UHGV virus genome: UHGV-1274323
Source: a virus
Strand: one strand, 5' to 3'
DNA: 41,059 nucleotides
Shown here: positions 3,802 to 37,749 of the stretch, in pieces
How positions within the stretch are numbered: position 1 is the first letter of the stretch
Layout of the letters: each line of letters opens with the position of its first letter
Translations under genes and position numbers: made by a program
Notes under the pieces: generated by a model
Seen by the model: the letters and a program-made list of their open reading frames with translations, nothing else
The model's database searches: none
What the model was told of the DNA's origin: nothing

Positions 3802-3969
3802 ATGAAAAAAGAGATCGTTTCCGGTTGCGAACTAAAGGACATTGCTACCAAAGATTTAGTGGACGAGCTCAAAAAACGCGAAGGTGTGGAAACAGCAATC
3901 GCGGAGCCGTACCAAGATAAAGCTATCGAAGTAACCGGCCCCGCGATCATTCTGGTGGTTATGGATTAG
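3802..3969 (+). CDS. Small hypothetical protein (55 aa), paralogue of the C-terminal part of the 3441..3755 product
   Basis: RBS GAGAGGAGAG before the ATG. Product MKKEIVSGCELKDIATKDLVDELKKREGVETAIAEPYQDKAIEVTGPAIILVVMD. Confidence 0.45.
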   Translation: MKKEIVSGCELKDIATKDLVDELKKREGVETAIAEPYQDKAIEVTGPAIILVVMD

Positions 3970-3987
3970 CAAAGGAGAGATGAACAA

Positions 3988-4161
3988 ATGAAATTGGTCA
4001 TTAAAGGCAAACCTAAAGAGATTGCCGCCCTTGTACTGGAGATACAAGAGCGGCAGGAAGAATTCGTGCCATCACATGGCTATGGGTTGGAGCATAAGGA
4101 AACAGTTAGAACAGATTCTCCCGTATCCACTTCCACTGATCCCCAGTTAGCCACCCATTAA
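3988..4161 (+). CDS. Small hypothetical protein (57 aa)
   Basis: RBS AAAGGAGAGA before the ATG. Product MKLVIKGKPKEIAALVLEIQERQEEFVPSHGYGLEHKETV…. Its 3' end overlaps the convergent gene 4106..4372. Confidence 0.3.
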   Translation: MKLVIKGKPKEIAALVLEIQERQEEFVPSHGYGLEHKETVRTDSPVSTSTDPQLATH

Positions 4162-12471: not shown

Positions 12472-12972
12472 ATGGCGCGGCTGACCGAAAAGCAAAAGCG
12501 TTTTGTATCGGAATATCTGGTTGATCTGAATGCCACGCGCGCTGCCCAGCGGGCGGGATACAAAGATCCCAATATCGGACGGCAGCTCAAAACGAAAAAT
12601 AACGTTTCGGCAGCCATTCAGAAGGCTATGGAGAAACGCGAGAAAAGAACGGAAATAACTCAGGACCGGGTATTGGAGGAGCTGGCCGCCATCGGTTTTG
12701 CCAAGGGGACGGATTACGCGCAGATACAGTCAAACGGCCATGTGAGCCTTACCCCCACGGAGGTGCTGACAGAGGGACAAAAGGCGGCGGTTCTGGGGGT
12801 CAGGGAAACACAGTACGGTGTGGAGATCAAGCTGGCGGACAAGGTGCGGGCCCTGGAACTGCTGGGCAAGCATCTGGGGTTGTTTGCCGGGCGCGTTCCG
12901 GAGGAAGAGGGGACCGGCGGTGTCATTGAGATCGGTGCGGTGCTGCCGGACGAAACGGAGGGGACGCCATGA
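12472..12972 (+). CDS. terS: Terminase small subunit
   Basis: MARLTEKQKRFVSEYLVDLNATRAAQRAGY… is the hallmark N-terminus of P27-type small terminase. It overlaps the large-subunit start. Alternative upstream starts are at 12391 and 12424. Confidence 0.8.
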   Translation: MARLTEKQKRFVSEYLVDLNATRAAQRAGYKDPNIGRQLKTKNNVSAAIQKAMEKREKRTEITQDRVLEELAAIGFAKGTDYAQIQSNGHVSLTPTEVLTEGQKAAVLGVRETQYGVEIKLADKVRALELLGKHLGLFAGRVPEEEGTGGVIEIGAVLPDETEGTP

Positions 12973-14423: not shown

Positions 14424-16358
14424 ATGCAGGAACAAATCGGAAAGGCGCCGGAGGCGAACGGTGTCCGGTTGGTGAGTATTTCGCCGGAGACGGCGGGGCA
14501 GGCGGCGGAGTCCGCTGTTCCGGCCGGGCGGATCGGAGAAGAAGAGATTCGGGAAGCCGCCCGGGTTCTACAGGAATACAAGCGGGGCAAGGCCAATCTG
14601 GAGGCCCGCATCATCGACAACGAGCAGTGGTGGAAGCTGAGGCATTGGGAACAGATCCGAAAGAAGAACGAGCACGACCCGGAACCGGTATCGGCCTGGC
14701 TGTTCAACTCCATTGCCAACAAGCACGCGGACGCCATGGACAACTTCCCCGAGCCCAGCGTACTGCCCCGGGAGGAGGGGGACAAAGAGGACGCCCGGGC
14801 CCTGTCCTCCATCCTGCCGGTGGTATTGGAGGAAAACGGGTACGAACAGACCTATTCGGACAAATGGTGGTATAAGCTCAAAACCGGTACAGGGGTGGAG
14901 GGCGTTTTCTGGAACCCCGGAAAGCTGGGAGGGCTGGGAGACATCGAGATCCGTAGGTTGGATCTGCTGTCCCTGTTCTGGGAGCCGGGTATCCGGGACA
15001 TCCAGAAGTCCCGAAACGTCTTTCATGTGGAGCTGGCCGACAACGATCTGCTGGAGCAGCGGTATCCTCAGCTCAAGGGGACGCTGGGCACTTCCACGGT
15101 GGATGTGGCGCAGTACGTCTATGACGATGCCGTGGACACCTCCCATAAATCCGCCGTGGTGGATTGGTACTACAAGCTGGAGGAAGGGGGCCGGACCCGG
15201 CTGCATTACTGCAAGTTTGTGAACAGCTGTCTGCTGTATGCGTCGGAGAACGATCCCCTGTATCAGCAGAGGGGGTTTTACGATCATGGGGAATACCCCT
15301 TCGTGTTCGACCCCCTGTTTATGGAAGAGGGCACGCCGGCGGGGTTCGGTTATATCGACATTATGAAAAGTCCCCAGCTGTCCATTGACAAACTGAACCA
15401 GGTGATTCTGAAAAACGCTCTTATGTCGGGGAAAAAGCGGTTCTTTATCCGTGCGGACGGGGCGGTCAACGAAGAGGAGTTTGCCGACTGGAGCCGCGAT
15501 TTTGTCCATGTGCAGGGCAACCTGGGGGAGGACAGCATACGGGAAATCGAGACGCGGCCGCTGGATTCTATCGTAGCCACCGTTATGCAGTTAAAGATCG
15601 ACGAAATCAAGGAGACCTCCGGCAACCGGGATTTTTCTCAGGGAGGGACCACCTCCGGCGTGACGGCGGCCTCCGCCATTGCGGCGCTGCAGGAGGCGGG
15701 AAGCAAGCTGTCCCGGGATATGATCAAAGCCTCTTATCGGGCCTTTACCCAGGTATGCACCCTGTGCGTGGAGCTGATTCGCCAGTTTTACGATGAGCCC
15801 CGGCAATTCCGCATCCTGGGGGAGCGGGGCGCCATGGAATTTATCCAGTACAGCAACGCCGGGATACGTCCTCAGGAGCAGGGGCAGGCCTTTGGAGTAG
15901 AGCTGGGGTACCGGCTGCCGGTATTCGATATCAAGATCCGGTCACAGAAGAGCAGCCCTTTCTCCAAGCTGAGCCAGAATGAGATGGCGAAGGAGTTCTT
16001 CGGCATGGGCTTCTTTCGGCCGGATATGGCGGATCAGGCCCTGTCCTGTATGGAGATGATGGACTTTGAGGGCAAGGATGCGGTGATGAACCGGGTAGCG
16101 CAGAACGGCACGCTGTATCAGATGGTACAGCAACTCCAGCAGCAGGTGATTCAGCTGGCGGCCATTGTGGACGCGCAGAATGGGACGGCCATTGCCCCGG
16201 GAGCAGCCGCTGCGGATTTGGGAAAGGTTGCGGCTCCCAAAGAAGGGAGCGGGACGGCGGTGGAGACCAATCCCCTGGGCGCGGCGGTGCAGTCCTCCCG
16301 GAATACGGATGCGGCGACAGCACGGAGCCGGGCCATGAACGCGGCCAGGCCGCAGTAG
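14424..16358 (+). CDS. Portal protein
   Basis: 644 aa, directly downstream of terL with RBS CAGGAGGCG. Order and size are canonical. Confidence 0.8.
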   Translation: MQEQIGKAPEANGVRLVSISPETAGQAAESAVPAGRIGEEEIREAARVLQEYKRGKANLEARIIDNEQWWKLRHWEQIRKKNEHDPEPVSAWLFNSIANKHADAMDNFPEPSVLPREEGDKEDARALSSILPVVLEENGYEQTYSDKWWYKLKTGTGVEGVFWNPGKLGGLGDIEIRRLDLLSLFWEPGIRDIQKSRNVFHVELADNDLLEQRYPQLKGTLGTSTVDVAQYVYDDAVDTSHKSAVVDWYYKLEEGGRTRLHYCKFVNSCLLYASENDPLYQQRGFYDHGEYPFVFDPLFMEEGTPAGFGYIDIMKSPQLSIDKLNQVILKNALMSGKKRFFIRADGAVNEEEFADWSRDFVHVQGNLGEDSIREIETRPLDSIVATVMQLKIDEIKETSGNRDFSQGGTTSGVTAASAIAALQEAGSKLSRDMIKASYRAFTQVCTLCVELIRQFYDEPRQFRILGERGAMEFIQYSNAGIRPQEQGQAFGVELGYRLPVFDIKIRSQKSSPFSKLSQNEMAKEFFGMGFFRPDMADQALSCMEMMDFEGKDAVMNRVAQNGTLYQMVQQLQQQVIQLAAIVDAQNGTAIAPGAAAADLGKVAAPKEGSGTAVETNPLGAAVQSSRNTDAATARSRAMNAARPQ

Positions 16359-17884: not shown

Positions 17885-18907
17885 ATGAAAAACGCACAGT
17901 ATTGGCTGGATCTGCAGCTGTTTGCGACGGTGACGCAGACCACCACCCTGAACGGTTCCGGGAACGATCTGTCCCCGGAAATGAAAACCTACTATGAAAA
18001 GCGGCTGCTGGACAATGCGGAGCCCAATCTGGTTCATGACCAGTTTGCCGACAAGTATCCCATTCCGAAAAATGGGGGCAAAACTATCGAATTCCGCAAA
18101 TACAGTCCCCTGGCCAAGGCGACCACAGCCATCACGGAAGGGGTAACCCCCGATGGCAACAAGCTGAATGTGACGGCTATCACCGCCACCATTGCCCAGT
18201 ACGGCGACTGGATTCAGATGTCCGATCTGCTGGACCTGACGGCCATTGACAACAACGTGCTGCAGGCGACCAAGCTGCTGGGCAGCCAGAGCGGCCGCAC
18301 CCTGGACACCATCACCCGGGAGGTGCTGGCGGGCGGTACCAACGTGATCTATGCCCCTAAGGTAGCCGACGGTGTGGAAACGGCTGTTACCTCCCGCGCC
18401 GGACTGGATGCTACGGCCAAGATCAACGTGGATCTGATTTTTAAGGCGGCCCGGGCGCTGAAAGCCATGAACGCCAACAAGATTGACGACAGCTTCGTGG
18501 CCATTGTGCATCCCGATGTGGCGTATGACCTGATGCGCTGCGAGGAGTGGATCGACGCCCACAAGTACGCCACCCCGGACAACATCTATCAGGGGGAAAT
18601 CGGCAAGATGGGCGGCGTGCGGTTCGTGGAATCCACCGAGGCCAAGATCTGGACCGGTTCCGGCTGTCCGTCCGGCCTGGCGGTGTACGGCACAGTGGTG
18701 CTGGGAGCCCACGCCTACGCCACCACTGAGGTCACCGGCGGCGGACTGCAGCATATCATCAAGCAGCTGGGCTACGGCGACGATCCGCTGAACCAGCGCA
18801 GCTCCTGCGGCTGGAAGGCCACCAAGGCGGCCAAGCGCCTAGTGGAGGAATACATGGTGCGGATCGAATCCTGCTCCTCTTTCTCCTCCACGGCCACCGC
18901 CAACTGA
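17885..18907 (+). CDS. Major capsid protein
   Basis: 340 aa following the scaffold gene. N-terminal Prp-type motif WLDLQLFATV. A strong terminator follows downstream. Confidence 0.75.
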   Translation: MKNAQYWLDLQLFATVTQTTTLNGSGNDLSPEMKTYYEKRLLDNAEPNLVHDQFADKYPIPKNGGKTIEFRKYSPLAKATTAITEGVTPDGNKLNVTAITATIAQYGDWIQMSDLLDLTAIDNNVLQATKLLGSQSGRTLDTITREVLAGGTNVIYAPKVADGVETAVTSRAGLDATAKINVDLIFKAARALKAMNANKIDDSFVAIVHPDVAYDLMRCEEWIDAHKYATPDNIYQGEIGKMGGVRFVESTEAKIWTGSGCPSGLAVYGTVVLGAHAYATTEVTGGGLQHIIKQLGYGDDPLNQRSSCGWKATKAAKRLVEEYMVRIESCSSFSSTATAN

Positions 18908-19767: not shown

Positions 19768-21504
19768 ATGATTGTGAGACTGCCGATGCTGGAGGATGTC
19801 CGAGCACAGAGGACCGGCGTTTCCTCCTTTGGTGGGTATAACCATACCCCTGGGGTCAAGGAAAACCAGTTTTTCGATATGGTCAACATGTCCTCCGACG
19901 AATTCCCCCTGCTGTCCCCGCGGAAACCGTATGTGCACGTGCGCAATGTGGGGTATCCGGAGGCGCTGTATGCCCACAACAAGCTGTGCTGGATTGCGGA
20001 TAACGGCTTCTACTATGACGGGGTCCGGTACGGCAATGCGCCTGACAGCAGTCAGCTGGTGGGGATGGGGGCCTATGTGACCGTCTGGCGGGATAAGGCC
20101 ATATTTAATTCCAGCAGCAATACCTACCGGCAGCTGGAAAGTCAGAGGAGTGTCACCGATGTTGTCAAGAAGGTATCGGACAACTTGAGTTTCGCTTTGT
20201 CGAATCTCACACAGGATCCCTGGTACCCGGATGAGGAGCAGCGAAACCATTACCAGCCGTTCCAGGCGGGAGAAGTGGTGGAGATAAGCTACTTTGATCT
20301 GGTAGAAGTGGACGATCCGGGCGGAACCCCGTGGATGACCGTGATTCGTCAATATGAATGGGTGAAAATTCTCAATGTTCAAACGGAGGAAGACAGCGGT
20401 TTGTCCGAGTATGTGGAAACGGAGATGAACCAGTCTTTTTGGGAACGCTATCAGGAGCTGCAGGATATCCTGGACACAGGCAAAGGCGAGGCTTATGGAT
20501 TTACCGATATAGACGTTCGCCTGTCCCGGAAGGTGCCGGATATGGATTTTGTATGCGAATGGAACAACCGGCTGTGGGGATGCTCCTCCGAAAAGCACGA
20601 ACTGTATGCCAGTGCCCTGGGCGATCCGTACAACTGGAACGTCTTTGAAGGCACCTCGCAGGACAGCTACATATTGACGATTGGCTCCACCGGGGAATTT
20701 ACCGGTATCTATGCTTACGGAGGCGGGTTGCTGCTGTTCAAAGAGAACTGCATACATCGTCTTTACGGCACTTCACCTTCCAATTATCAGCTGACAACGC
20801 TGGTGTGCGACGGGGTACAGAAGGGCTGTGAGCGTTCCATTTGTGAGAGGAACGGAATCCTATACTATGTGAGCCAATACGGGGTGTGCGCGTATTCCGG
20901 CAGTTACCCGACGGTGATATCCGGGGATTTGGGGAATGTGGAATACACGGAGGCATCGGCGGGGGTCTGGCAGAACAAGGTCTATTTTTGCATGAAAGCG
21001 GCCGCCCATTCCTGCTACCCAGACGAGATCAAGGGGGAGCACTGGGAGATACTGGTTTTTGATGCGGAACGGGGCTGCTGGCACAAGGAGGATGAGCTGC
21101 ACGCGGTATGCTTTGCCGCCTTTGAAAACCGCCTATATTTCCTGAATGCGGAAAACAGAAGCCTGTATGTGGCGGCAGCGGACGATACGTTCCCCACATC
21201 CGACAAGGTGCATTGGTTTGTGCGCACAGGCAAGCAATGCTCCCAGCTGCCGGACAACAAAACGGTATCCAAAATTCAGGTCAAGGCCACGGTATTCAGC
21301 GGCGCCCGGCTGTGCATCGAGCTGCGCTACGATTCCGGAGAGCGGTGGGAGAAGTATTACGAGCAGATTTCCCACAGGAAGATGTGCTACACCATCCCCA
21401 TTATCCCCCGGCGCTGCGACCATTTTGAAATACGCATTTCCGGCACGGGCGAAGTGCTGGTTCACAGCCTGGCCCGGGAGCTGGAACAAGGGAGTGAATT
21501 GTAA
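19768..21504 (+). CDS. Structural protein (578 aa), function unknown (tail or neck component)
   Basis: Long ORF in the structural block. The start may be the GTG at 19774, which is better spaced from the AGGAGGG. Confidence 0.55.
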   Translation: MIVRLPMLEDVRAQRTGVSSFGGYNHTPGVKENQFFDMVNMSSDEFPLLSPRKPYVHVRNVGYPEALYAHNKLCWIADNGFYYDGVRYGNAPDSSQLVGMGAYVTVWRDKAIFNSSSNTYRQLESQRSVTDVVKKVSDNLSFALSNLTQDPWYPDEEQRNHYQPFQAGEVVEISYFDLVEVDDPGGTPWMTVIRQYEWVKILNVQTEEDSGLSEYVETEMNQSFWERYQELQDILDTGKGEAYGFTDIDVRLSRKVPDMDFVCEWNNRLWGCSSEKHELYASALGDPYNWNVFEGTSQDSYILTIGSTGEFTGIYAYGGGLLLFKENCIHRLYGTSPSNYQLTTLVCDGVQKGCERSICERNGILYYVSQYGVCAYSGSYPTVISGDLGNVEYTEASAGVWQNKVYFCMKAAAHSCYPDEIKGEHWEILVFDAERGCWHKEDELHAVCFAAFENRLYFLNAENRSLYVAAADDTFPTSDKVHWFVRTGKQCSQLPDNKTVSKIQVKATVFSGARLCIELRYDSGERWEKYYEQISHRKMCYTIPIIPRRCDHFEIRISGTGEVLVHSLARELEQGSEL

Positions 21505-23189: not shown

Positions 23190-26100
23190 ATGACATTCCG
23201 GGACTATCTGAAAAACAGGGGCAGGGAGGAAAAGGAGGATTCCGCACTGACTCGGCTGGCGGAGAAAAAGGTCTCCAGCACTGAAAGCGAAAGGATGAGC
23301 TTCCGTGATTTCCTGCGGGGCGCCGGACAGGACAGCACGTCCGGCGGCGCTCAGGACAACCTATTCACACAGATCAAGGAGGAGCGCCGGGCCAGAAGCT
23401 GGGCAAATTCGGCGGATTCTTTCCTTCAAAAGATTCAAAACGACTATTCCGCCCGGCATGAGGGCGGATATCAGTCACCGGAATCCATACAGGAATATAA
23501 GAAAAGCGTATCCAGCGAGCTACAAGAGCTACTGGACGGGGTGAAGGATGCTAAGCAATTCGCTTCTCAGATCACGGACGAGGAGAAACGGAAAAAATAC
23601 GAAAAGATGGTTAGCGATACCCAGCATTACCTGCAATCTGTGGACTGGCGTCTGGATCTGGAGGAGAGATACTGGGACAAGTGGGATTCGGAGGACAGCT
23701 ATAACCAGTGGAAAAAGGAATATGACCGGCAAAAGGAGCTGGACAGTTATCAGCAATCCATTTTAAGCCGGCCGGACTTTGAGGAATATGCCCGAAAGGG
23801 GGCAGCTACAGAAAATATATCGCTCCGCGACGCCACGGATGCACGCGGGCAATTCCGTTCGGGGAGCGACGAATTGATCGGAAACAAGGTTACCTTTACC
23901 CGGGATAATGCGCAGTCTCGTCCGTGGGAGACCGCGGCGCACAGCTCAATAAAACCCGATATCGAGGAACGCTATACCTATATGACGGATGACGAAGTAT
24001 CGATATACAATTACCTGCTGGCCAAAGAGGGAGAAGAAAAAGCCGATGAATATCTGGCCACGCTTACTCCCTATTTGAATTACCGGCAGGGCGAGGATAT
24101 GGCGGAGAAACGGAAAGGGTCGTTTCTGGATACTGTCGGGCTTTCTTTGACTTCCGGGCTCGATCAGTTTATAAGCGGCGTGCGCGGCTGGTTTACAGAG
24201 GAGGCAGAGCCGGTTTCCGCCACGCAAATAGCGGCGGAGCTGGCACGGGAAAATATCGGCTCCGATATCGGAAAATTCGCTTTTGATGCGGGGCGGGTGC
24301 TGGGCAACATGGCTCCGTCCATAGCTCTCGGAATGGTGACCGGTGGGGTTGGATCGGCGGCAGGATTGGGGACCGCCGGGGTACAGATGGCCAATGCTGT
24401 CGGCACAGGTCTATCCGTCGGCGCCAGTGCCGGCGGCAACAATTATCAGCAGGCGCTGCGGGAGGGGTATTCCGTACCGCAGGCGCGAACCTATGGCCTG
24501 ACCACCGGGGCATTGGAAGCGGGGCTGCAGACCGTCCTCGGCGCGACGGCTAAAGGCGCTGGCCTTGTCACCTCCAAGGTTTCCTCCTCACTGAGCAATC
24601 TGGTAAAAAGCGCCTCTCAGAAAGTAGCGGTAAAGGTGGGCATGTCCGCTTTGGGCGAGGGGTTCGAGGAATATCTGCAGGAAATCCTGAACCCGGTGGT
24701 GCGCAACCTGACGCTGGGAGAAGACAATGAGTTCCAGCTGTTCACGGAGGAAGCCCTATACAATGGGATGCTGGGAGCTATCACCGGCGGGCTGTTCTCC
24801 GCGGCGGATGCGGGAGCAAGCCGGGTGTCCAATCCGTTCTTCAGCGTGTATGGTACAGAGGGAAGCGTATCCACCCAAACGGATGAAAGCGGCAATGTGC
24901 TGGGGTACATGCACTTTAACCGCCAGGGGGATATTGACGGGTATGTCCGGGTAGCCAAGGATGGAGAAGCGGCCATCCATAAGCCGTTTACCTCCTATGA
25001 GAATATCCAGGCTTATGCCTATGTGGACAAGGAAGGTGTGACCCAGTATGGGCGGGTCAACGCGGACGGAGAGGTGGTGACCGGGTCCTTTCGCCCGAAT
25101 GACACCGCGGATGCCGGTGCAGCGTCTTCCGTAGAAGCCGATGCGGTATCTTCTACGGAGACGGCGACGGGAAGTGTGGATACTCATGCGGCGGACGGAC
25201 CGGCGAACATTCCGGCGCTGTACCAGCTGGCGCAGGACGCGGCGGCCAACCGGCAGGCAACGCCGGCCGGGACGGCAAAGGGAGCGGTTCGGACAAATGG
25301 AACGCCGGCCGCAGATGGGGAAAACATACGGGCGGCTTCGGCACGCCCGGAAGACACAAGCCGTGCCGCCACAAGCGGCCAGCAGGGCGGCACAATAGCC
25401 AATACGGGCATTCGGACAGACCACACAGCGGAAGCCAATGCGCTTCTCGCCATTTCGGGACAGGAGGCCGCTCCGGTGACCGTTTCGGGAATCGGCTCCG
25501 TGGAGGACGGCAACGTCCGGGTAACCCTTTCCGGCGGGGAAACGGTATCGCTGGAGGATGTGTCCTTCGACAGCCAGGAGACGGAGAGCCTGTATTATGC
25601 GGCGTCTGATTATACCACCCCAACGGCCCGGGCCTTTGTGTCCGGATATACAGGAGAATTGCCGCTGAAAACGTACAAGGTGGCATTTGACTTCATCCGC
25701 AGTCAGGCCAGGGAGGGAGTATCCTTTGACACGGCGGTAAAGCAAGCGGGCCTTGCGGGACAGATGATGGGCCTGGAAGCGCAGCAGCTGGCCTGGTATT
25801 CCGGCGTGAATGAAACGGCGGCGTTGCACAAAGCCGGTGAAAATGGTACGATATCTACAACGAAAGAAGGGAGTAGGGACAATGGAGAAGAAGAAATCCA
25901 TATTCGACAATATCAGGGTTCCGCTGGAGGACCTGACGGAGGAACAAGAAAAGAAAATAAAAAGCGATCCGAATTATCAAAAAGATCTGGAGGAGTCCAG
26001 GAAACGCCACAAAGAGTGGAAAAAAGCTTATCGGGAGCAACAAAAAAGAGAAAACGAGTAGTCATTTCTTCCAACGAGGGAAATTTCTCATTTGATTCCA

Positions 26101-29100
26101 TTCATCAGGACTCGTTGACTTCAAGGCAGAGAGCTCTTGTTCAAAAAAGCGCTGAATACGGATATGAGCTGCACTATTTTACTAAGGGGACCGTATTCAA
26201 TGATGGGGAAGAGGATAAGATTATTGATAAGCAGGCGTTTATGATCCCCGGTCTAAACGCCATCTTTGCCATGGATGGTCAGGACATAGATTTCCTTCAC
26301 CATGAGCTGTTTCATCAGTTTTTTGATGAGAACAAGCATGGAGAACGGGCGTTGTTTAATGGTGTTAATAACAATGCCAACGAAGACAGTGCGCAATGGG
26401 AGTATTATCGAAATCGGGCGAAAGAAGCATACCGACGCGAAATCCCCGACGAACTGCTCATAGAAGAAATCACCGCTGACCTTTGTGAATACGCCATGTC
26501 GGGATCGGAACAGATGCACCGGCGCCTGGATGGACTGTTTCCGGATGGGATGCTGGAGAAGCTGGCGGGGCAGGCGCGGGATGTGTTTGCGGCGAACAGG
26601 AAAGGAGAAAAAGGAAAAGCCGCCGAAGAAGCCGGCGGCGTGAGGTATTCGCTGGAAGGCTACACGGAGCATCAAAAGGAAAACTGGGCCAACAGCAAAA
26701 GTATTGTCCTGTATGAAAGCCAGGAGCAGTTGGAGAGGTTCATTGATGATGCGCTGGACAAAAGAAATCTCAGCAAAAAATTGTATTTTGGCCGGATACC
26801 TAATGAATTGGCTGAACGGGTAATGCGTGAAACTGGAATAAACATAAAAGGATATAATTGTACCATTCAGGCTCAGGAAATACGTAAAATCCTTTTGCAC
26901 TCACATGGAGACAGTGAGAGTGAACAGATGCGGGGACAGAGAGCAGTTACACGAGAAGATATCCTTCAAATTCCAGAAGTGATCGAATCCCCCGATATCA
27001 TTCGGCTTTCGTCCAAGCTATATGAAGGCAAGCCAGTTCTTCAATTTGTAAAAACCGTCGAAGGGAAAACCACGGTAGTATCATATGTTTCAAAAAAGCA
27101 TCGGGATTTAGCGGTTCAGACGATGTATGCAGGCATAAAGAAAGGAAGCCTTGCCACCGCGACAGATGCTCCGACGAGCGGCCCCCTGTCTCTCACGTCC
27201 GAAACGACCGTTGGTACAGCTTCCAATAACAGTATAGCAAAAAGCGTGAATACTGTCAACGATAGTCTTTCCCAAAGCGGCGCCGGTGTGATCTGGGAAA
27301 CGCCGGAAAATGAAGTTTCGGAATGGATTCGGGATCAGGCGGCGGTGCTGGACGCCATCGGGAAAGAATTCGGCTATCGTTTCCTTATCCGTTCCTCCCT
27401 GCTGGGAGGCAAGGCAAACGGACAGACAGTCCCCGGCAGCCGGGAGATCGTTCTTTCGGCGGACAGCATGGAGGAAGCGCTGCTGTACTGGGCGGGGCAT
27501 GAGGTGATCCATGATCTGCAGGTCAGCTATCCGGAGGGCTATGAGGAGATTTCCCGTCAGGTGCTGGAGTATCTGGGACAGCAGGAGCGCTTTGATCTTA
27601 ACCGGAGGAAGCAGCAGCTGATCAGGGAATACCGGCGCGGCGGACTGGAGCTGACGGAAGAAGAGGCGGAGGAGGAAATCGTCTGCAACGGCGCGGCCGT
27701 CGCTTTTGCCGACGAGGATTTCATCCGGGGATGTGCGGAAAGAAACCGGAGTCTGTTGGAATGGCTGAAGGAAAAGCTGAACAGCCTGCTAGCGCGCATC
27801 CGGGAGGTGCTGGCCCGGCTGACGCGGACCAACCCGGAGGTGCGTGCTTATGCGAAAGCCCCCCTGGAGACTCTTACCCGGTTGCAGCAGTCGGTGGAGA
27901 CGGCGCTGCGGGAAAGTGCCGGGAGGGCAGGCGGCAGGCAGTCCTTCCGGCGGTCCATGACCACGCGCACGAGTACGGACAGCCAGGGGAGGACACTGTC
28001 ACCGGAACAGGAGGAATTCTTCCGCAACAGTGCGATCCGGGACAAGGACGGTCATCTTCAGGTGATGTATCATGCCACGGATGCTCAGTTCACGGTGTTT
28101 GATAAGAAAAAGCAGGGAACTGTCACCGATGGCGGGATTTGGGGCCGTGGTTTTTACTTTGATGTAGAGGAATCCTTTGCCCTGGAGTTTGGGAGCAAGG
28201 CCACCGCGTATTATCTCAACGTAGCCCGGCCTTACCGCACTACCTATGAGGCTACCTGCGGGGAAATCATGGAGCTGTTCCGGGAAAACGGCATTCGAAT
28301 CCGTTTCCGCATGGACCCCGAAGAAGGATTGAATCGATTCATCCGCCGGTTTGGATATAAAAAGTTCAGCGAGGCGCTGCGCTTCCTGGGGTATGACGGG
28401 GTATTTGTCTCCGGGAATGAATGCGCTGTATACGAGCCCAATCAGATCAAGCGGATTGACAACCTGTCTCCGACGGAACAGGAGGATGTGCGCTATGCGG
28501 CCAAAGAAAAGCGGGGGCTGCGGTATTCCCTGCAGAATGTGGATGGAGCGGACATCGACAGTCTGACAGAGGAGAATGAGGCGCTGCGGCGCCAGGTGGA
28601 GCTGCTGAAGCAGGAGTTCCGGTTGACGGAGGGACACCAGGTAAGCAAGGCGGCAGTGGAAGGACTGGCGGCCAAGGTTCTGCGGCAGACCAAGAGTGTG
28701 TATGACAAGGACACGCTGGCGGGAAATCTGCAAACGGTGTTTCGCTACATAGCCAACGACCCGGAGGCCAATTTTCAGGAGACGATGGAGGTGCTCACCG
28801 ACATTGCCGGGAGCGTCCTTCAGGAATCCACGTCGATGAATCGTGACCTGTACAACGAGTACGCCGACATGCGGGAATATTTCCGAAAGACCCCGTTGTC
28901 CCTGTCGGAGGCGGCGAAAGCCGAGCTGACAGACGGCTATGCGGATTTTCGTTCCCGCAATTTCGGTATGCTCAATTTGAGATCGGGCGGAACTCTTCTG
29001 AATGAACTGTGGGGTGAAATCTGCGAAAAATGGCCGCAGTTCTTTGATGCGGATCTTGCCGAGACGGAACAGCCGTATGCGGTAGTAGACGCGCTGAATG

Positions 29101-32100
29101 CTGTAAAACCGGCCTATATCAATCCATATGGGATGAACAACGCCGATGCCGCCCGTGATCTGGCGATGCAGCTGTATTATGAATACTTCGAGCTGCCGGA
29201 GGTGCATACCTTTGCGGACAAGCATAAAGCGGAGCTGGAGAAGCTCCGTGCAGAGTACCGCCGGAAGCTGCTGGATGCCCGTTCCGCCGCCCGCGACCAG
29301 TACAACAAACGGCTGGAAGAGGTACAGGAATGGAATGCCGGGAAGCGGCGGGAGCTGTCCAAGAAAATCCGTGAGACGGAGAACGCCAAACGTAAGCAGC
29401 AGCTGGCGGCCCAATACCGGCGGCTGATGGACCGGAAGGCGGAGCAGCTGGAAAGGCAGAAAGCCAAATTCCGGACCCAATGGGAAAATCGTGAGGCAAA
29501 CCGCCGGGAGCGGGAGGAGATTCGGAAACTGCGGACCCGGATTCGTTCCATTGCCGACGAACTGAGTAAGCGGTTGGTAAAGGAAACGGATCAGAAAAAC
29601 ATTCCGGAGGATTTCAAAAAGCCGGTGGCCGAGCTGCTGTCGATGCTGGATTTCACCACCGACCGGACGGAATCGGACAGCCAGGCAAGCCGGCGTCTGC
29701 GGGATTTACAGGCGGCCTATGCCAAGCTGGAAAGCGCTACCCAAGGAGAGGAAACGCCCCTTACTGACTACTTTGACCCGGATATTCTGAATATGATCGA
29801 GGAAGTGGCGGGACTGGTAGAGGGCAAGCGGGTGATTGATCTGGGGGTCCAAGAGCTTTCCCGGCTCAAGGATTTATTGAAGTCCATCTCCACCATTGTT
29901 CATAACGCCGGAAGGCTGTTCCGCGAGGATAAAGCGGTGACGGTAGCGGAGGCTGGAAAGGAAGCTATCCGCGTCCTCAACGCCAAAAAGCAGTTCCGGC
30001 GGGCCAAAATTGCGGAAGGGGAGAACAATCCCTTTGGATTTATGAGTGATTTGCTGGGCAAGGGGATGCTGACACCGTATTATTTCTTCAAGCAGTTGGA
30101 CGGACCGATGTGGGAACTGTTCCAGAAGGTGTATGACGGTGAGGATGTCCATACGGTGCTGCTGGCCCAGGCGGAGCAATACGCCAAGGAGACCATGGAG
30201 CGATATCACTTCCACGACTGGGACCGGTACGAGCTGAAAAAGGTCGGCCCGGTAGTGGTAAAGGATGAATCCGTCCCGTTCCAAACAGCCGGCGGGGATA
30301 CAGTCAGGCTGACTTTAGGCGAAATGCTGTCCCTGCATTCCCTTTACCGCCGGGATACGTATAAGAAAACCCATCACCTGGACAAAGGCGGTTTTGCCCT
30401 AGAGCGGGACGAAAAGGGGACAAGGCGGTTCGTCCTCTTCACAGACGAAGATTTTCTAAAGCTGGATGGGATGATTACCGAAGAGCAGAAGAAATTCTGG
30501 GATACGATGCTAAAATACCTGAGCAATGATGTTGCGGGGTGGATCAACGACACCTCCATGAAGCTGCTCGGCATCCGGAAAGCGACGGACACGTTCTATT
30601 TTCCCACGGAGGTAAGCGATACCGCCCTGCGGACGGAGCCAAGGCACGGTGCGGCCTCACCAGTGCTGAATCCGCCATTCCTGCGCCGGACCAGGGAAAA
30701 CGCCAACGCACCTGTGGTGGTGCGCGACGCCCTGACCGTGTGGACGGAACACGTGCAGCAGGCGGCGCTGTTCCGGGCATTCGGGATGCCGGTCCGGGAT
30801 CTGCTGCGGGTATGGAATTACAAATACCCCGGGGAACCGGGGCTGACCGTGAAGGCGGCCGTGCAGGGAGCTTTCGGCATACGGGCCAACGAATATATCG
30901 CCGATTTCCTGAGCGATCTGGACGGCGGTGTACAGCCCCAGCGGGAGACGGGATTGTTAAACTGGGGTATCACGCGGTTCAAGAAGCTGTCCGTGCTGGG
31001 GAACCTCCGCGTGGCCATCCAGCAGGCAATCTCCCTGGTCCGGGCGCTGCCGGATGTGAAGCTGAAATATCTGTTGATTCCGATCACCCCCGCCCAGATA
31101 AAACGGGAATATGAAGAGGCTATGCACTACGCGCCGGTGTATCGGCTCAAGAAATGGGGCAGTTTTGATGTTGGAATGGGTCAGGGCTTTCTGGAACGCC
31201 TTCTGGAGCAGGAGTATAAGGGCCTGTCCAAGGTCAAGGGCCTGGTGGCCGATTCCCGGTACCGCGATCAGGCAATGGGATTCCTGGCGGAAAAAGGAGA
31301 TGAGGTTGCCTGGGCGATTCTGTGGCGCGCGTACAAGCTCACCACGCGGGACGAGCATCCCGAGCTAGTAAAGGGGAGTGAGGCATTTTTCCGGGAGGCC
31401 GCCCGGTTGGCTACGGATTCTATCCGGAAAAGCCAGTGGTATGATTCCGTTTTCAAACGCAGCGCGATGATGCGTTCCAAGGATACCGGTGCGAAAATGG
31501 CCACCGCCTTTGTGGGAGAACCCACCACGATTTATAACATGCTGCTGGACGCCGCCAACGAGGCGAAAAGCGGAAAGGCGGGGTCAAAGAAGAAAGCGGG
31601 AAAGATATTTAAAGCTGTCCTCGCCAGCGGAATTCTTGGCGCTTTGGTGGTCAGTATCGCGGACGCTATGCGGGATGACGAAGACGAAAAGAAGGACGAG
31701 AACGGCAATATCATCGGGACCCGTTCCTTCTGGGACAAGTACTTGGAGGCTGTGCCGGAGAATTTCGTTGACAGTTACCTTGGGCTGATCCCGTATATTA
31801 AGGATGTCGTGTCCATCTTCCAGGGCTATGAAGTAAAACGCACGGATATGGAGCATTTCCAGAAGCTATATTATGCTCTGACGAAGCTGGGCAGTGACGA
31901 ATATACCACGGCAGAAAAAATAGATATTCTGGCAGGAGCGGCTACCGCCCTATTCGGCATCCCTTACGCCAATGTTTCTCGCGATCTGAAGGCGATTTAC
32001 CGGACCTTTTTCGGAGACGGCACAGATGGAACCGCCAGCTACCGGGGATATCTGCTGTACCGGTCGGTGCTGGAGGGAGACAAAGAGACCTATCAGGAGC

Positions 32101-32768
32101 TTTACAACGGATACCGGGAAGACGGTAAGACGGACAAGGAAATTCAAGGGGTGCTCCGTTCCGAGCTGGCTACCTATAGCCCCCTGATTTCGGAATCGGT
32201 GGCGGCGAAGCTGAACGGGGATCTGAATGCTTATGAAGCCGATATTCAGAAGATGATCCAGTCCGGATTCCAGCGTGAGATGGTTATTGATGCGGTGAAG
32301 AACTTTGAGCAGAAGCTGAAAACCATTGCCGGATACCGGGTGGACGGGAAGACAGAAGAAGCAGAAAAAGCACTGGCCAAGCTGTTTCCGCCGGAAGTGG
32401 ACGAGGAAACCCGAAAAACGATTGAAGCAAGAATTGATACGCTCACGGAAAAGAAGGCTGCCGAGCCGGAAGAGGAGGAAGAAGAACCCTCCTCCAGCCT
32501 GTACACTTATACCGATCTGTGCGAGGCAATCGAAAGGGGAGAGTCAAACAATGTCTCCAGGATTCTCCAGGATATGCGGAAAAACGGGAAGGAGGATAAA
32601 ACCATTCGGACTCAGGTAACCAGATACTTTAAGCCCTTGTATATCGTCTGTTATCAAAATAGGGATAAAGAGGGAATGAAGAAAATCGAGAAGGCTTTGT
32701 ACGCTTTGGACCTGGGGTACGATTACAAGGATTTTGAAGCGTGGACCGATCCTAAGGAGGACGAATAA
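23190..32768 (+). CDS. Giant 3192-aa virion protein: tape-measure/ejection-protein-like scaffold carrying embedded effector domains (polyvalent-protein-like)
   Basis: Single 9579-nt ORF with RBS GGGGGGTGTGAGGGAAAA-ATG and a strong terminator downstream. Gly/Ala-rich hydrophobic stretches at aa ~330-560. Long coiled coil at aa ~1790-2000. PARP-like ART motif set at aa ~1620-1760. HExxH at nt 26301-26315 and 27498-27512. A low-GC cassette lies at 25870-27300. Confidence 0.8.
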   Translation: MTFRDYLKNRGREEKEDSALTRLAEKKVSSTESERMSFRDFLRGAGQDSTSGGAQDNLFTQIKEERRARSWANSADSFLQKIQNDYSARHEGGYQSPESIQEYKKSVSSELQELLDGVKDAKQFASQITDEEKRKKYEKMVSDTQHYLQSVDWRLDLEERYWDKWDSEDSYNQWKKEYDRQKELDSYQQSILSRPDFEEYARKGAATENISLRDATDARGQFRSGSDELIGNKVTFTRDNAQSRPWETAAHSSIKPDIEERYTYMTDDEVSIYNYLLAKEGEEKADEYLATLTPYLNYRQGEDMAEKRKGSFLDTVGLSLTSGLDQFISGVRGWFTEEAEPVSATQIAAELARENIGSDIGKFAFDAGRVLGNMAPSIALGMVTGGVGSAAGLGTAGVQMANAVGTGLSVGASAGGNNYQQALREGYSVPQARTYGLTTGALEAGLQTVLGATAKGAGLVTSKVSSSLSNLVKSASQKVAVKVGMSALGEGFEEYLQEILNPVVRNLTLGEDNEFQLFTEEALYNGMLGAITGGLFSAADAGASRVSNPFFSVYGTEGSVSTQTDESGNVLGYMHFNRQGDIDGYVRVAKDGEAAIHKPFTSYENIQAYAYVDKEGVTQYGRVNADGEVVTGSFRPNDTADAGAASSVEADAVSSTETATGSVDTHAADGPANIPALYQLAQDAAANRQATPAGTAKGAVRTNGTPAADGENIRAASARPEDTSRAATSGQQGGTIANTGIRTDHTAEANALLAISGQEAAPVTVSGIGSVEDGNVRVTLSGGETVSLEDVSFDSQETESLYYAASDYTTPTARAFVSGYTGELPLKTYKVAFDFIRSQAREGVSFDTAVKQAGLAGQMMGLEAQQLAWYSGVNETAALHKAGENGTISTTKEGSRDNGEEEIHIRQYQGSAGGPDGGTRKENKKRSELSKRSGGVQETPQRVEKSLSGATKKRKRVVISSNEGNFSFDSIHQDSLTSRQRALVQKSAEYGYELHYFTKGTVFNDGEEDKIIDKQAFMIPGLNAIFAMDGQDIDFLHHELFHQFFDENKHGERALFNGVNNNANEDSAQWEYYRNRAKEAYRREIPDELLIEEITADLCEYAMSGSEQMHRRLDGLFPDGMLEKLAGQARDVFAANRKGEKGKAAEEAGGVRYSLEGYTEHQKENWANSKSIVLYESQEQLERFIDDALDKRNLSKKLYFGRIPNELAERVMRETGINIKGYNCTIQAQEIRKILLHSHGDSESEQMRGQRAVTREDILQIPEVIESPDIIRLSSKLYEGKPVLQFVKTVEGKTTVVSYVSKKHRDLAVQTMYAGIKKGSLATATDAPTSGPLSLTSETTVGTASNNSIAKSVNTVNDSLSQSGAGVIWETPENEVSEWIRDQAAVLDAIGKEFGYRFLIRSSLLGGKANGQTVPGSREIVLSADSMEEALLYWAGHEVIHDLQVSYPEGYEEISRQVLEYLGQQERFDLNRRKQQLIREYRRGGLELTEEEAEEEIVCNGAAVAFADEDFIRGCAERNRSLLEWLKEKLNSLLARIREVLARLTRTNPEVRAYAKAPLETLTRLQQSVETALRESAGRAGGRQSFRRSMTTRTSTDSQGRTLSPEQEEFFRNSAIRDKDGHLQVMYHATDAQFTVFDKKKQGTVTDGGIWGRGFYFDVEESFALEFGSKATAYYLNVARPYRTTYEATCGEIMELFRENGIRIRFRMDPEEGLNRFIRRFGYKKFSEALRFLGYDGVFVSGNECAVYEPNQIKRIDNLSPTEQEDVRYAAKEKRGLRYSLQNVDGADIDSLTEENEALRRQVELLKQEFRLTEGHQVSKAAVEGLAAKVLRQTKSVYDKDTLAGNLQTVFRYIANDPEANFQETMEVLTDIAGSVLQESTSMNRDLYNEYADMREYFRKTPLSLSEAAKAELTDGYADFRSRNFGMLNLRSGGTLLNELWGEICEKWPQFFDADLAETEQPYAVVDALNAVKPAYINPYGMNNADAARDLAMQLYYEYFELPEVHTFADKHKAELEKLRAEYRRKLLDARSAARDQYNKRLEEVQEWNAGKRRELSKKIRETENAKRKQQLAAQYRRLMDRKAEQLERQKAKFRTQWENREANRREREEIRKLRTRIRSIADELSKRLVKETDQKNIPEDFKKPVAELLSMLDFTTDRTESDSQASRRLRDLQAAYAKLESATQGEETPLTDYFDPDILNMIEEVAGLVEGKRVIDLGVQELSRLKDLLKSISTIVHNAGRLFREDKAVTVAEAGKEAIRVLNAKKQFRRAKIAEGENNPFGFMSDLLGKGMLTPYYFFKQLDGPMWELFQKVYDGEDVHTVLLAQAEQYAKETMERYHFHDWDRYELKKVGPVVVKDESVPFQTAGGDTVRLTLGEMLSLHSLYRRDTYKKTHHLDKGGFALERDEKGTRRFVLFTDEDFLKLDGMITEEQKKFWDTMLKYLSNDVAGWINDTSMKLLGIRKATDTFYFPTEVSDTALRTEPRHGAASPVLNPPFLRRTRENANAPVVVRDALTVWTEHVQQAALFRAFGMPVRDLLRVWNYKYPGEPGLTVKAAVQGAFGIRANEYIADFLSDLDGGVQPQRETGLLNWGITRFKKLSVLGNLRVAIQQAISLVRALPDVKLKYLLIPITPAQIKREYEEAMHYAPVYRLKKWGSFDVGMGQGFLERLLEQEYKGLSKVKGLVADSRYRDQAMGFLAEKGDEVAWAILWRAYKLTTRDEHPELVKGSEAFFREAARLATDSIRKSQWYDSVFKRSAMMRSKDTGAKMATAFVGEPTTIYNMLLDAANEAKSGKAGSKKKAGKIFKAVLASGILGALVVSIADAMRDDEDEKKDENGNIIGTRSFWDKYLEAVPENFVDSYLGLIPYIKDVVSIFQGYEVKRTDMEHFQKLYYALTKLGSDEYTTAEKIDILAGAATALFGIPYANVSRDLKAIYRTFFGDGTDGTASYRGYLLYRSVLEGDKETYQELYNGYREDGKTDKEIQGVLRSELATYSPLISESVAAKLNGDLNAYEADIQKMIQSGFQREMVIDAVKNFEQKLKTIAGYRVDGKTEEAEKALAKLFPPEVDEETRKTIEARIDTLTEKKAAEPEEEEEEPSSSLYTYTDLCEAIERGESNNVSRILQDMRKNGKEDKTIRTQVTRYFKPLYIVCYQNRDKEGMKKIEKALYALDLGYDYKDFEAWTDPKEDE
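28040..28470 (+). other. PARP-like (H-Y-E class) ADP-ribosyltransferase-type catalytic signature inside the giant ORF
   Basis: VMYHATDAQF (His) … GIWGRGFYFD (Gly-x-Gly-x-Tyr-Phe) … NECAVYEPNQIKRIDNL (Glu-x-x-x-Tyr-x-x-x-Gln). These parallel PARP's WHGS / GKGIYFAD / NEYIVYDIAQVNLKYLL. Confidence 0.55.
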
Positions 32769-32770
32769 GC

Positions 32771-32801
32771 GAGGTGGGGAGAGATTCTCCCCACCTTTTG
32801 T
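32771..32801 (+). terminator. Rho-independent terminator after the giant gene
   Basis: GGTGGGGAGAG-att-CTCCCCACC followed by TTTTG. Confidence 0.75.
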
Positions 32802-32826
32802 TATGCTGGGGACAGGAGGGATGACT

Positions 32827-35667
32827 ATGCCGCCGGTAAGAACCATTGAATTTAAAGTAACTCATGCGGGCCTGGTCCCTGGTTCTCCTCAATTTGCCGG
32901 AGTGCAGGGGGAACACAATGCTACCCGTGTCAGCTTTTTGCTGGATACCGTCTTACAGACGGGATATGTGTACCGTATTGAATATGTGGATGGACGGGGA
33001 AACTGGGATACGACGGATCTGCTGACCATTTCCGATGGCGCCATCGCCTATGACTTGCCGTCTGCCTGGACGCGCAATGGAGGGGAAGCGGAAATCCATC
33101 TGGTGGCGTCTGCGCTCGATTCGGAGGGTAAAGAAACACAGACCTATTTTTCCCTGGCGGGAAAGCTGTACTATGAAGACAAGTCCGCCGATGAAACCGG
33201 TGAAACCAAAGCGGGCCTGACCGAACTGATACAGGATACCCATGAGGCAATCGACGAAGCGAACCAGGCCACGGATAATGCAAATGAAGCAGCGGAACGG
33301 GCAAACAATGCCACCGGGGCGTTGAATCAGGCGCTGTCCGATGTGGAAGAAGCCATCGACGGGGCCAATGCAGCGCGGGATGCGGCGAATCTGGCGGCTC
33401 AGGAGGCGAAAGAAGCGGCGGCAACGGCAGAAGAGGAAGCGGAGGCGGCCCATCAGATTACTTTGGCAGCCCAGGCAGCGGCAGGGAAAGCAGATACCGC
33501 GGCGACCGCTGCCCAAAATGCAGCTTCGGCGGCGCAGTCCGCTGCATCCGCGGCCAATACAGCGGCGGGAACGGCCAATACCGCTGCCGGGACTGCAAAC
33601 GCGGCCGCATCCGCAGCCAACGCAGCCGCCGAGGCGGCAAATGAAGCGGCAGACGCGGCCAACGAAGCAGCGGGGAGCATCGCCGATAAAGTAGACACAG
33701 TGGACGCACTGCCAGTGTACGCGATGACGCGGAGCAGCGATCCCACCGATTGCTGGCAGCCGACGCCAGGGATCGCCGTGCCGGATACCGGGCCATATAC
33801 CGGAATGGCAATCCGCGCGGTGTGGGAAGAAGAATGGGATGCGTCTGTGCCAATATGGGCTTTTGGCGATATATACAGTATGCGGGCAAGTGGACATCAT
33901 CCTGCCGGAACCTATATCCTGACGTTTACATCATCTTATGACTGGACTGTGCAGCCACTGGACATGGCATACACAGACGAACGGGCGGAGCAGGCAGCTG
34001 ACGAAGCGGCGGAGGCTCACGCAGCGCAGGTGCGGCGGACGTATCAGCCCGCGTGGAAGCGCACTGCAGGAGGCTGTCCGGTGTCTGTTGCGGATGCGGC
34101 GGAAGGGGCCGACCTGTCCAGCTTGGTACTCAAGGGCCGGACGGTGGTGTCTGGTACGCCTTCTCCCGATGCACCCGTCACCATTACCGGGGTGAAGCCT
34201 CAGACAGTGGCTGTGACGGGGAAGAATTTGATTCCACCCAAGGCGGCTTCGGAAACCATCAACGGAGTGACGTGCACCGTCAATGCTGATGGGAGCTTAA
34301 CTCTCAACGGCACGGCGACAGCGACGGCAACTTTCAGGGTATCCGATTTTGCTTTGTGTCCCGGAGTGTACACCATATCCTCCGGGAAAATCCTTAATCA
34401 GGGGGATAACCTCATCCTACGCAAGCAATCTCAAGAGGTATGGCTGAATTATGCAGGACATGCCTCTCCCTCCCAAACAAAATTGATCGGATACAAGGGT
34501 ATGGTGAGAGTGTACCTAAACCTAAAAGAGGGGTCAACGTATACAAACCTAACCATCTATCCTCAGCTGGAGGCGGGCAGCGAGGCCACAAGCTACAAGC
34601 CATACCGAGGGGAAACGATTACACCGGACGAGGTGGAGCTGTACGGGGATGCTCATGCCGTAGGGAAGAACCTGATTCCCACTTTTGAAGGATCAGCATC
34701 TATAAATGGAATATCTGTATCCATCAACACGGACGGCAGCATCACGCTGAACGGCACGGCAACGGAAACGGCATTTATCAATTTCCCGCACATGATGATT
34801 AAGGCAGGAACCTACACACTGTCAACGGGAATTGTATTGCCCTCAGGAACCTTTATTACCCTGCGTGAGGGAGGGGCCAGTGCGAAAATGCTTTTATCCG
34901 TATATGATACTGCCTCATCCAAGTCGGGGGCCATCTCCTATAGCGGAGATGCTTTTGTGTATTTTGCGGTACAAGCCGGCACAACGGTATCCAATCTGAC
35001 CATCTATCCTCAGCTGGAAGCGGGCAGCGAAGCGACGGCGTACGAACCCTACCAGGGAATGACCACAGCACTGGAGGATGGGGACAGCCTGGACCTAGCG
35101 ACAGGAGAGGTAGTCCGCCGGTGGAAGCGGCTGGAACTGGACGGGACGGAGAAATGGACGATACGGTCGGCCAATGAGCACGGCCTTACCAACTTTAGCT
35201 TGATAATGATTGATCCTTATCTTACCAAGTTCCCGAACGTATATTGTACACACTATCCCACCCAGAACACATTATTTGCGGATACGACAGACCGAGGCAT
35301 ATTACTATCGGCAAATTACACTATCTACATCCGCGAAACATACACAACAGTAGAGGATTTCAAAGCCTACCTAGCAGCGCAGAAAGAAGCCGGAACACCG
35401 GTGACCGTGTTGTACAGGATGAAAAAACCGGAGGTAGTGTCCGGATGGGCTCACTCCCTTGCGCAGCCGGAAGGGGAGATGGTGATCTCAGCCCTGGGGA
35501 CAAGGGGAGAGACGGCGGAAGCCGTGGACACGGAGGCTCTTTATACCTACCGGCCGGATTGGGACGATGTTTTGAGCCGTCTGGCGGCGCTGGAGGAGAT
35601 TGTGTCCGGTGGAATTATCAGCGGTTCGGTTCGGGTAAGTCCCAACATGGGAATTAAAATAGTGTAA
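32827..35667 (+). CDS. Tail fibre / receptor-binding protein with Ala-rich coiled coil and duplicated distal domain
   Basis: RBS GGACAGGAGGG. About 180 aa of Ala-rich heptad-like sequence (nt ~33180-33720). Two ~130-aa paralogous modules each end [21 protein letters not shown] (nt ~34210-35060). Confidence 0.6.
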
Positions 35668-36672: not shown

Positions 36673-37749
36673 ATGAGTAAAGCAAAAATCATGATCGATC
36701 CGGGACACGGGCCGGGATGTGTCAACGGGGGACCTACGGGGTACCTTGAACATGAAGGCATGTGGAAGCTGTCTGGATATCTGAAAACGGCGCTGGAACG
36801 GTGTGGATGTGAGGTGGCACTGACACGCGCGGAGAGCGAACGTCCTGAATTGACGGAACGCGGGAACAAGGCGGCAGGGTATGACCTGATGATCAGTGAG
36901 CACAGCAACGCCGGAGGCGGGCGCGGTGCAGAGGCGTACTACTCCGTGCGGCAGCCGGAAAACCAGGGGATGGCTGCGGAGCTGGCAGAAGCGGCATCAA
37001 CGGTACTGGGGTCTCCCAGCCGGGGCGCGAAGACAAAGCGATCCACCAACGATCCCAGCTACGATTACTATACCGTCATCGGTTACGCCGTGGCTGCCGG
37101 GTGTCCAAAGGTGTTTATCTGCGAGAACGGGTTCCACGACAATACCCATGATGAGGCGGTGCTCAAGCAGGATGGTAAGCTCCGGGAGATGGCGGAGGCT
37201 CAGGCGAAAGTGATCTGCGCACATCTGGGAGTGACGTATACCGAAAATACTGAACCGGAGGACGAGCCTGAACCAGCTCCTTCTCCTTCCGAGTTCGCCG
37301 TAGGGGACGCCGTCCGGGTACGGGCTGGCGTGGAGTACTTCGCCACGGGGCAGCACATGGCTTCCTGGGTGTGCGAAAGTGTGCTGTACGTTATCCAGGT
37401 GGGGAATGGTAAGGTTCTGGTTTCCACCGCTCCCGGCGGCGCAGCAACGGGCTGGATCAAGACGGGTGATCTGGTAGCGGAAGGGGGAGGTCCTGTTGCG
37501 CCTTCCGAGCCTGAACCGTCCCAGCCGGAGCCCACGCCTCAGCCTGATCCCTCCGGCTTCGCTGTAGGGGATGCGGTAAAGGTACGAGATGGCGCGGAAT
37601 ATTTCGCCACGGGGCAGCACATGGCTTCCTTCGTCCGGCAGGGCGTGCTGTATGTCCTCCAGGTGGGCAGCGGCAAAGTGCTGGTGAGTACGGCTCCGGG
37701 AGGAGCGGCCACCGGGTGGATCCGGACCGAGGATCTGGTGAAAGCGTAA
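36673..37749 (+). CDS. Endolysin: N-acetylmuramoyl-L-alanine amidase (Amidase_3) with two C-terminal cell-wall-binding repeats
   Basis: IDPGHGPG…LTRAE…YDLMISEHSNAG…EAYY are the Amidase_3 zinc-site motifs. The C-terminal ~60-aa unit FAVGDAVxVRxGxEYFATGQHMAS…VLYVxQVGxGKVLVSTAPGGAATGWIxTxDLV occurs twice (nt ~37297-37480 and 37555-37740). Confidence 0.85.
   Translation: MSKAKIMIDPGHGPGCVNGGPTGYLEHEGMWKLSGYLKTALERCGCEVALTRAESERPELTERGNKAAGYDLMISEHSNAGGGRGAEAYYSVRQPENQGMAAELAEAASTVLGSPSRGAKTKRSTNDPSYDYYTVIGYAVAAGCPKVFICENGFHDNTHDEAVLKQDGKLREMAEAQAKVICAHLGVTYTENTEPEDEPEPAPSPSEFAVGDAVRVRAGVEYFATGQHMASWVCESVLYVIQVGNGKVLVSTAPGGAATGWIKTGDLVAEGGGPVAPSEPEPSQPEPTPQPDPSGFAVGDAVKVRDGAEYFATGQHMASFVRQGVLYVLQVGSGKVLVSTAPGGAATGWIRTEDLVKA

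Follow-up and report, generated by a model that had tools for sequence, protein, structure and literature searches.

An ART-PolyVal ADP-ribosyltransferase domain in a giant polyvalent protein encoded by an uncultured gut phage

The virus genome UHGV-1274323 (41,059 nucleotides; the window, analyzed over its whole length) carries a giant gene for a protein of 3,192 amino acids (aa). Comparison of this giant protein with family profiles, sequence collections and solved structures shows that a segment near its middle is an ART-PolyVal domain (PF18760, related to Tox-ART-HYD2). The domain has the nicotinamide adenine dinucleotide (NAD+)-dependent ADP-ribosyltransferase (ART) fold of the PARP and diphtheria-toxin class, and is one effector module of the polypeptide. 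The best explanation, to which we give a probability of roughly 75%, is that it is the ART effector module of a phage polyvalent protein that would be packaged, ejected, and used to modify a host macromolecule. The gene and the domain are placed as follows.

23190–32768, plus strand: giant open reading frame (ORF) of 3,192 aa, a phage polyvalent protein (ORF list and translation)
28041–28472, plus strand: match to Pfam PF18760, ART-PolyVal, aa 1618-1761 (E 5.5e-16, 60 bits against a gathering cutoff of 31.2)
27972–28499, plus strand: full folded ART module, aa ~1595-1770, with a conserved N-terminal extension 5' of the Pfam boundary (AlphaFold model and alignment)

The PF18760 match spans profile positions 1-138 of 140 and clearly exceeds anything expected by chance. 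A sequence-only reading of the window had pointed to PARP-like catalytic motifs, in order, at 28040-28470, and the profile match falls at almost the same coordinates. All of these motifs are in the frame of the giant protein, with YHAT at aa 1627 (nt 28068), GRGFYF at aa 1652 (nt 28143), YYLNVARPY at aa 1674 and NECAVYEPNQIK at aa 1743 (nt 28416). The limits needed two small corrections: the in-frame codon starts at 28041, and the folded module starts ~25 residues further upstream.

To a large extent, this domain has already been described. Iyer, Burroughs, Anand, de Souza and Aravind (2017; PMC5512222) reported ART-PolyVal as the commonest protein-modifying domain of the "polyvalent proteins" of phages and plasmids, with an active site formed by a His in strand 1, a Tyr in strand 2 and an Asp in strand 5, and also described its late-gene context and an injection model. 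A 2022 survey restates this account. The domain studied here agrees with that description (PMC5512222) in its full-length match to the hidden Markov model (HMM), its strand-1 His, strand-2 Tyr and invariant Asp, and its place in a multi-domain protein of >3,000 aa, which also carries PBECR and HExxH modules and is encoded among late virion genes. Nothing essential differs; the copy in the giant protein has a Glu in the PARP column, as do 37% of copies.

An exhaustive phmmer search of the 183-aa ART segment against 1.84 billion cluster representatives returned 3,993 proteins at E<=1e-3 (1,269 at E<=1e-10), so that ART-PolyVal is very common. A word-indexed search with the same segment gave 3 matches only, a low count that is an artefact of the index. 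The matching proteins are mostly 2,000-5,000 aa long, with several domain copies each. In the viral model database BFVD, 79 models matched at E<=1e-3, and the best ones are labeled "PolyVal ADP-ribosyltransferase". The suggestion that an H-Y-E type ART inside a virion protein would be unusual therefore fails, because ART-PolyVal was published in 2017, is found in ~4,000 cluster representatives, and is already labeled in viral models. The domain adds an ordinary member, from a gut-phage lineage not described before, to a known family. Its weight as a discovery is small, since the family, the active-site type, the giant-protein setting and the injection hypothesis were published in 2017, and the family is curated in Pfam.

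The segment from aa 1591 to 1790 was modeled with AlphaFold2 (mean predicted local distance difference test (pLDDT) 82, predicted template-modeling score 0.79). Model residues 1-50 (aa 1591-1640), which hold the conserved DSxGxxLSxEQxxFF segment near aa 1595 (nt 27972), had a pLDDT of 88-97, and confidence dropped beyond aa ~1770. Q1607 and F1637 are conserved in alignment A1, which consists of 27 domain copies cut out of homologs of the giant protein. The model shows the split beta-sheet ART fold with similarity to PARPs and diphtheria toxin. Its top structural match was gp27 of cyanophage A4 (9k3a_B; score 7.8, 20% identity over 135 residues), and tankyrase-2, PARP4, PARP1 and other PARPs followed at scores of 6.1-7.2, with a root mean square deviation of ~3 Å over ~100 residues. 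MbcT scored 6.4, and lower scores were obtained for diphtheria-toxin homologs (4.9-5.7), RES toxins (5.3-5.6), AcrIF11 (5.4), and Tpt1 and RhsP2 (4.0). The toxins of the R-S-E class (scabin, pertussis, C3, ART2) scored <=3.5, and the features of R-S-E ARTs such as T4 Alt/ModA/ModB, VIP2 and the cholera-toxin type (a strand-1 Arg, a strand-2 S-T-S and an ExE motif) were not found in the domain. A Foldseek search with the model agreed with this list. The ART fold proposed from the sequence is thus borne out by a confident model and concordant structural comparisons, and the domain belongs on the H-Y-E rather than the R-S-E side, because PARPs rank high and R-S-E toxins low among the matches. The proposed kinship with diphtheria toxin and PARPs stands; that with DarT does not, as no DarT structure was among the structural matches of the model.

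Some PARPs, like DarT, Tpt1/KptA and RhsP2, modify nucleic acid, and the domain could act in the same way on host or competitor DNA or RNA, including transfer RNA and CRISPR RNA. We consider this unlikely. Less likely still is a role as a consumer of NAD+, either as an NADase or as an NAD+ phosphorylase of the MbcT or RES type, or as a toxin or superinfection-exclusion factor. MbcT is among the better structural matches, but PARPs outscore the RES toxins. Early depletion of NAD+ would hurt a phage that relies on host metabolism, and many proteins carry 2-14 copies of the domain, which fits diversified target specificities better than bulk hydrolysis of NAD+.

At the sequence level, the relationship to PARPs is distant. 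No Pfam PARP family matched the domain even at E<=10, and two independent profiles of the ART-PolyVal family, A1 and A2, picked up PARP sequences in the PDB only at E 0.02-2. With the ART segment as a single query, PDB sequences yielded chance matches only (ribosomal protein L7, E 0.2), and phmmer with the whole giant protein against the same sequences returned nothing useful. The ART module belongs to the same superfamily as the PARPs, but lies outside the PARP family proper. It differs from the eukaryotic PARPs (PARP1, tankyrases, PARP4, PARP12) in its low identity (~15-18%), in lacking the PARP helical regulatory domain, in a helical insert between strands 3 and 4, in an NQIK signature that PARPs do not have, and in the lack of family-wide conservation of the Glu. 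Relative to PARP1, it has Ala in place of the Gly after the His, and Phe (F1666) at the place of Tyr907.

The candidate active-site residues are listed below, with conservation figures from 421 non-identical domain copies in 210 proteins, collected with a profile HMM.

28071–28073, plus strand: His1628 (YHAT), the strand-1 His; column His 95%, Arg 4%; aligns with H-G-[ST] of PARP1, tankyrase and PARP12
28155–28157, plus strand: Tyr1656 (GRGFYF), the strand-2 aromatic residue; column Tyr 66%, Phe 23%
28395–28397, plus strand: Asp1736 (GYDG); column Asp 98%, the sole near-invariant acid; aligns with 'YDS' of PARP4 and PARP12
28419–28421, plus strand: Glu1744 (NECAVY), in the column of the PARP catalytic Glu; aligns with Glu in DDEFVVY of PARP4 and Ile in PSIFVIF of PARP12
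28443–28451, plus strand: Gln1752-Ile-Lys1754 (NQIK), a near-invariant family-specific signature; Gln 96%, Lys 98%

H1628, Y1656, D1736, E1744, Q1752 and K1754 are all kept in the giant protein, and are invariant in 17 close relatives. In the model, H1628 and Y1656 lie within strands (model residues 36-40, aa 1626-1630, and model residues 65-68, aa 1655-1658, respectively). The family pattern YH[GA]T aligns with H-G-[ST] of PARPs, the pattern GxGFYF...Y aligns with G-x-G-[IS]-Y-F...Y of PARP4, PARP12 and tankyrase, and the pattern gYDGi...sEvvvF..nQiK aligns with GYDSVHG...DDEFVVYKTNQVK of PARP4 and YDSCVNSVSDPSIFVIFEKHQV of PARP12. The E values of the PARP4 and PARP12 profile alignments are marginal (0.02-0.09), yet the aligned blocks are collinear and consistent with the structural matches. 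The active site of PARP4 is of the H-Y-E type and that of PARP12 of the H-Y-I type, and the two alignments therefore place Glu1744 in the third column of the PARP triad. H1628, Y1656 and E1744 occupy the triad columns of PARP4 and PARP12, and the His and Tyr also those of PARP1. An hhalign comparison of the family profile with a PARP1 catalytic sequence aligned only the His/Tyr half (probability 12.6%), and serves as corroboration only.

The H-Y-E triad read from the sequence is thus present in this copy, but its Glu is not conserved across the family. The Glu1744 column contains Glu in just 37% of copies, followed by Val (17%), Gln (9%), and then Ser, His and Ile, and the invariant Asp1736 (98%) had been overlooked. 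The PARP alignments put D1736 at the head of the strand that precedes the strand of the PARP Glu. Judged from the alignments, Asp1736 is probably the 'D' of the published H-Y-D triad, because it is the family's only conserved Asp. A more speculative reading, which we put forward tentatively and think doubtful as a whole, is that the essential site consists of the invariant Asp1736, Gln1752 and Lys1754, with the PARP-type Glu as an optional extra, so that the ~37% of copies bearing the Glu would have a distinct activity or target (for example, a nucleic acid or a defense complex), and would be delivered from a pre-ejectosome like that of A4. In ~4% of ART-PolyVal copies, the strand-1 His is replaced by Arg (MYRGG) and the Tyr, Asp and Glu are kept; the swap falls at the position that separates the two great ART divisions, and does not occur in the copy of the giant protein.

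Selection on the domain was estimated from the DNA of three relatives. Over the ART, the three pairwise comparisons gave ratios of non-synonymous to synonymous substitution rates (dN/dS) of 0.11, 0 and 0.04; summed, they contain 35 synonymous and 9 non-synonymous changes. The domain is therefore under purifying selection. The closest relatives, L001 and L002, show zero differences in the ART and are uninformative on selection. A minus-strand ORF of 493 aa (27999–29480), which overlaps the ART, was rejected as a gene; the plus frame has homologs, the Pfam domain and a dN/dS well below 1.

These values also bear on the possibility that the domain is an inert structural or DNA-binding module of a capsid-internal ejection complex, kept for architecture. 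Such a role would agree with the location of the best solved-structure match, which lies in the structural outer ring of the A4 pre-ejectosome and touches packaged DNA, and with the dispensability of the PARP-type Glu across the family. Against it, the conserved columns (His 95%, Tyr or Phe 89%, Asp 98%, Gln 96% and Lys 98% over the 421 copies) are all occupied here, the NAD+-contacting loop GxGFYF is intact, and dN/dS is low (~0.05-0.1). The domain also shifts its position and copy number among homologs like an effector cassette, unlike a scaffold element. We regard an inert role as the least probable of the explanations considered, and highly improbable in itself.

The remainder of the giant protein has the layout of a polyvalent protein, in which the N-terminal region is followed by effector and peptidase modules and the C-terminal half is conserved.

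26067–26639, plus strand: HExxH module, upstream of PBECR3; HELxH motif invariant, seen in 21 collected proteins
26796–27131, plus strand: PBECR3 predicted RNase domain, aa 1203-1314 (Pfam PF18812, E 1.6e-17, 63.9 bits against a cutoff of 30)
27297–27869, plus strand: HExxH module, aa 1370-1560, directly 5' of the ART, with HEVIH at 27498–27512 (motif conservation)
28479–32768, plus strand: conserved C-terminal half, the presumed virion-incorporation or ejection scaffold of the giant-protein family (phrog_22978)
26640–26651, plus strand: linker-motif variant VRYS, aa 1151-1154
28488–28499, plus strand: linker-motif variant VRYA, aa 1767-1770
28518–28529, plus strand: linker-motif variant LRYS, aa 1777-1780

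PBECR3 sits between the two HExxH modules, and these three modules and the ART are contained in one polypeptide encoded among virion and late genes. The match to phrog_22978 covers aa 1764-2939 (E 2e-233). The giant protein has 348 detectable homologs (2,400-4,600 aa, mostly on contigs of 41-45 kb), which have the C-terminal ~45% in common; in distant homologs, the identity in this common region is 25-33%. The middle region of the homologs varies, and holds changing sets drawn from ART-PolyVal, PBECR families, DUF3990, a C5 DNA methylase and large-polyvalent-protein domains. Shuffled effector domains over a common C-terminal half are the defining pattern of polyvalent proteins, and the giant protein is therefore one of them. 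Divergence along the giant gene is mosaic. Among close relatives, aa 1400-2300 are 97-100% identical, with synonymous divergence (dS) of 0.04-0.37, and aa ~2300-2900 (30087–31889) are 44-69% identical, with saturated dS (>2). This pattern suggests that part of the 'conserved' C-terminal half has been exchanged by recombination or is under pressure to diversify.

Neither HExxH module was matched by Pfam, the one at aa 1370-1560 not even at E<=1, and their identification rests on motif conservation for this reason. Homologs of the aa 1370-1560 module are present in 229 of the 272 collected polyvalent proteins, with HExxH invariant, and the module seems to represent a widespread family of putative metallopeptidases that escapes the profiles now available. 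By analogy with the proposals of Iyer et al. 2017 (PMC5512222), the two modules are candidate zincin-like peptidases that would process the polyprotein. The six remaining segments of the giant protein showed no significant Pfam family; a match to LPD14 (E 0.006) was under the cutoff and was not accepted.

A short linker, D[IV]R[YF]S, borders the modules of these giant proteins, with 281 occurrences in 251 homologs, compared to 1.4 expected from shuffled sequences. The variants in the giant protein are placed just 5' of the PBECR3 module and just 3' of the ART. These motifs could be cleavage sites for the HExxH modules. Inspection by eye also showed a long hydrophobic stretch rich in Gly, Ala and Ser at aa ~370-520 (24300–24750; GNMAPSIALGMVTGGVGSAAGLGTAGVQMANAVGTGLSVGASAGG), with the sub-threshold LPD14 match nearby; in an ejection protein, such a segment could insert into membranes or act as a glycine zipper.

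Under the explanation that we favor, the giant protein would be a late product whose conserved C-terminal half takes it into the capsid. On ejection it would enter the cell along with the DNA, possibly already cut by its own HExxH peptidase modules. Early in infection, the ART module would transfer ADP-ribose from NAD+ onto a macromolecule of the host; the likeliest acceptor is a protein that serves in transcription or defense. The biology proposed here is that of T4 Alt (and ModA/ModB), where the ART is packaged in the head, injected with the DNA, and modifies host proteins such as RNA polymerase. On the non-R-S-E side, the anti-CRISPR protein AcrIF11 (PDB 6kyf; PMC12421852) is a characterized phage ART, which occurs in phages and plasmids; it differs in being a small stand-alone early protein that is not packaged in the virion, and has no sequence-level relationship to the ART described here. 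The structural match to A4 gp27, a 1,717-aa component of a capsid-internal pre-ejectosome (PDB 9k3a chain B; PMC12002296), is relevant to this account. It is a solved example of an ART-like domain on a portal-proximal core, although the authors describe no such domain there (PMC12002296).

Family membership, the ART fold, retention of the conserved residues, purifying selection and the genomic context are directly supported, and the domain is probably an active enzyme that is ejected with the DNA. Several points weigh against this explanation. Packaging, ejection and processing of the giant protein, and the activity and target of its ART, are inferred, and the Pfam and PHROG libraries gave no function for its C-terminal half. 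The sequence-profile link to A4 gp27 is not significant (E 0.91), and the rest of the two proteins has no detectable similarity. The placement of D1736 and E1744 relative to the NAD+ pocket depends on the PARP profile alignments and is marginal at their E values, and the catalytic geometry may differ from that of PARPs because the PARP Glu is present in 37% of copies only. We found no published assay for any PF18760 member, and only a handful of papers mention the family.

The ART of the giant protein is a good candidate for the first biochemical study of this abundant family, being single, intact and under purifying selection, and retaining both the Asp and the PARP-type Glu. The HExxH peptidase module that adjoins it is conserved too, and the gut-phage genome is small. 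Identification of its target would reveal how thousands of gut phages act on their hosts within minutes of infecting them.

The phage is uncultured and podovirus-like, with a genome of ~41 kb, and the giant gene is part of its late virion gene set. The genes around it are as follows.

12969–14405: large terminase
14424–16358: P22-like portal
17885–18907: major capsid protein
19768–21504: PHROG "internal virion protein"
32734–35667: ORF of 977 aa, 3' of the giant gene, function unassigned, weak PHROG matches only
36673–37749: amidase endolysin

A megablast search of positions 20000–41059 against deposited phage genomes returned no nucleotide match, and tblastn with the C-terminal half of the giant protein found one unannotated 4.8-kb fecal fragment. 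A 96%-identical giant protein is encoded on a contig of 41,066 bp, with gene order unchanged. As called, the 977-aa ORF begins with a TTG codon and overlaps the last 35 nt of the giant gene; in the close relative L001, the call for the next gene starts 59 nt past the giant-gene stop. The true start of the 977-aa ORF probably lies further downstream. Positions 1–4000 have a GC content of 43.6%, compared to 51-60% over the rest of the window, and these first 4 kb may hold early genes or a module with a separate origin.
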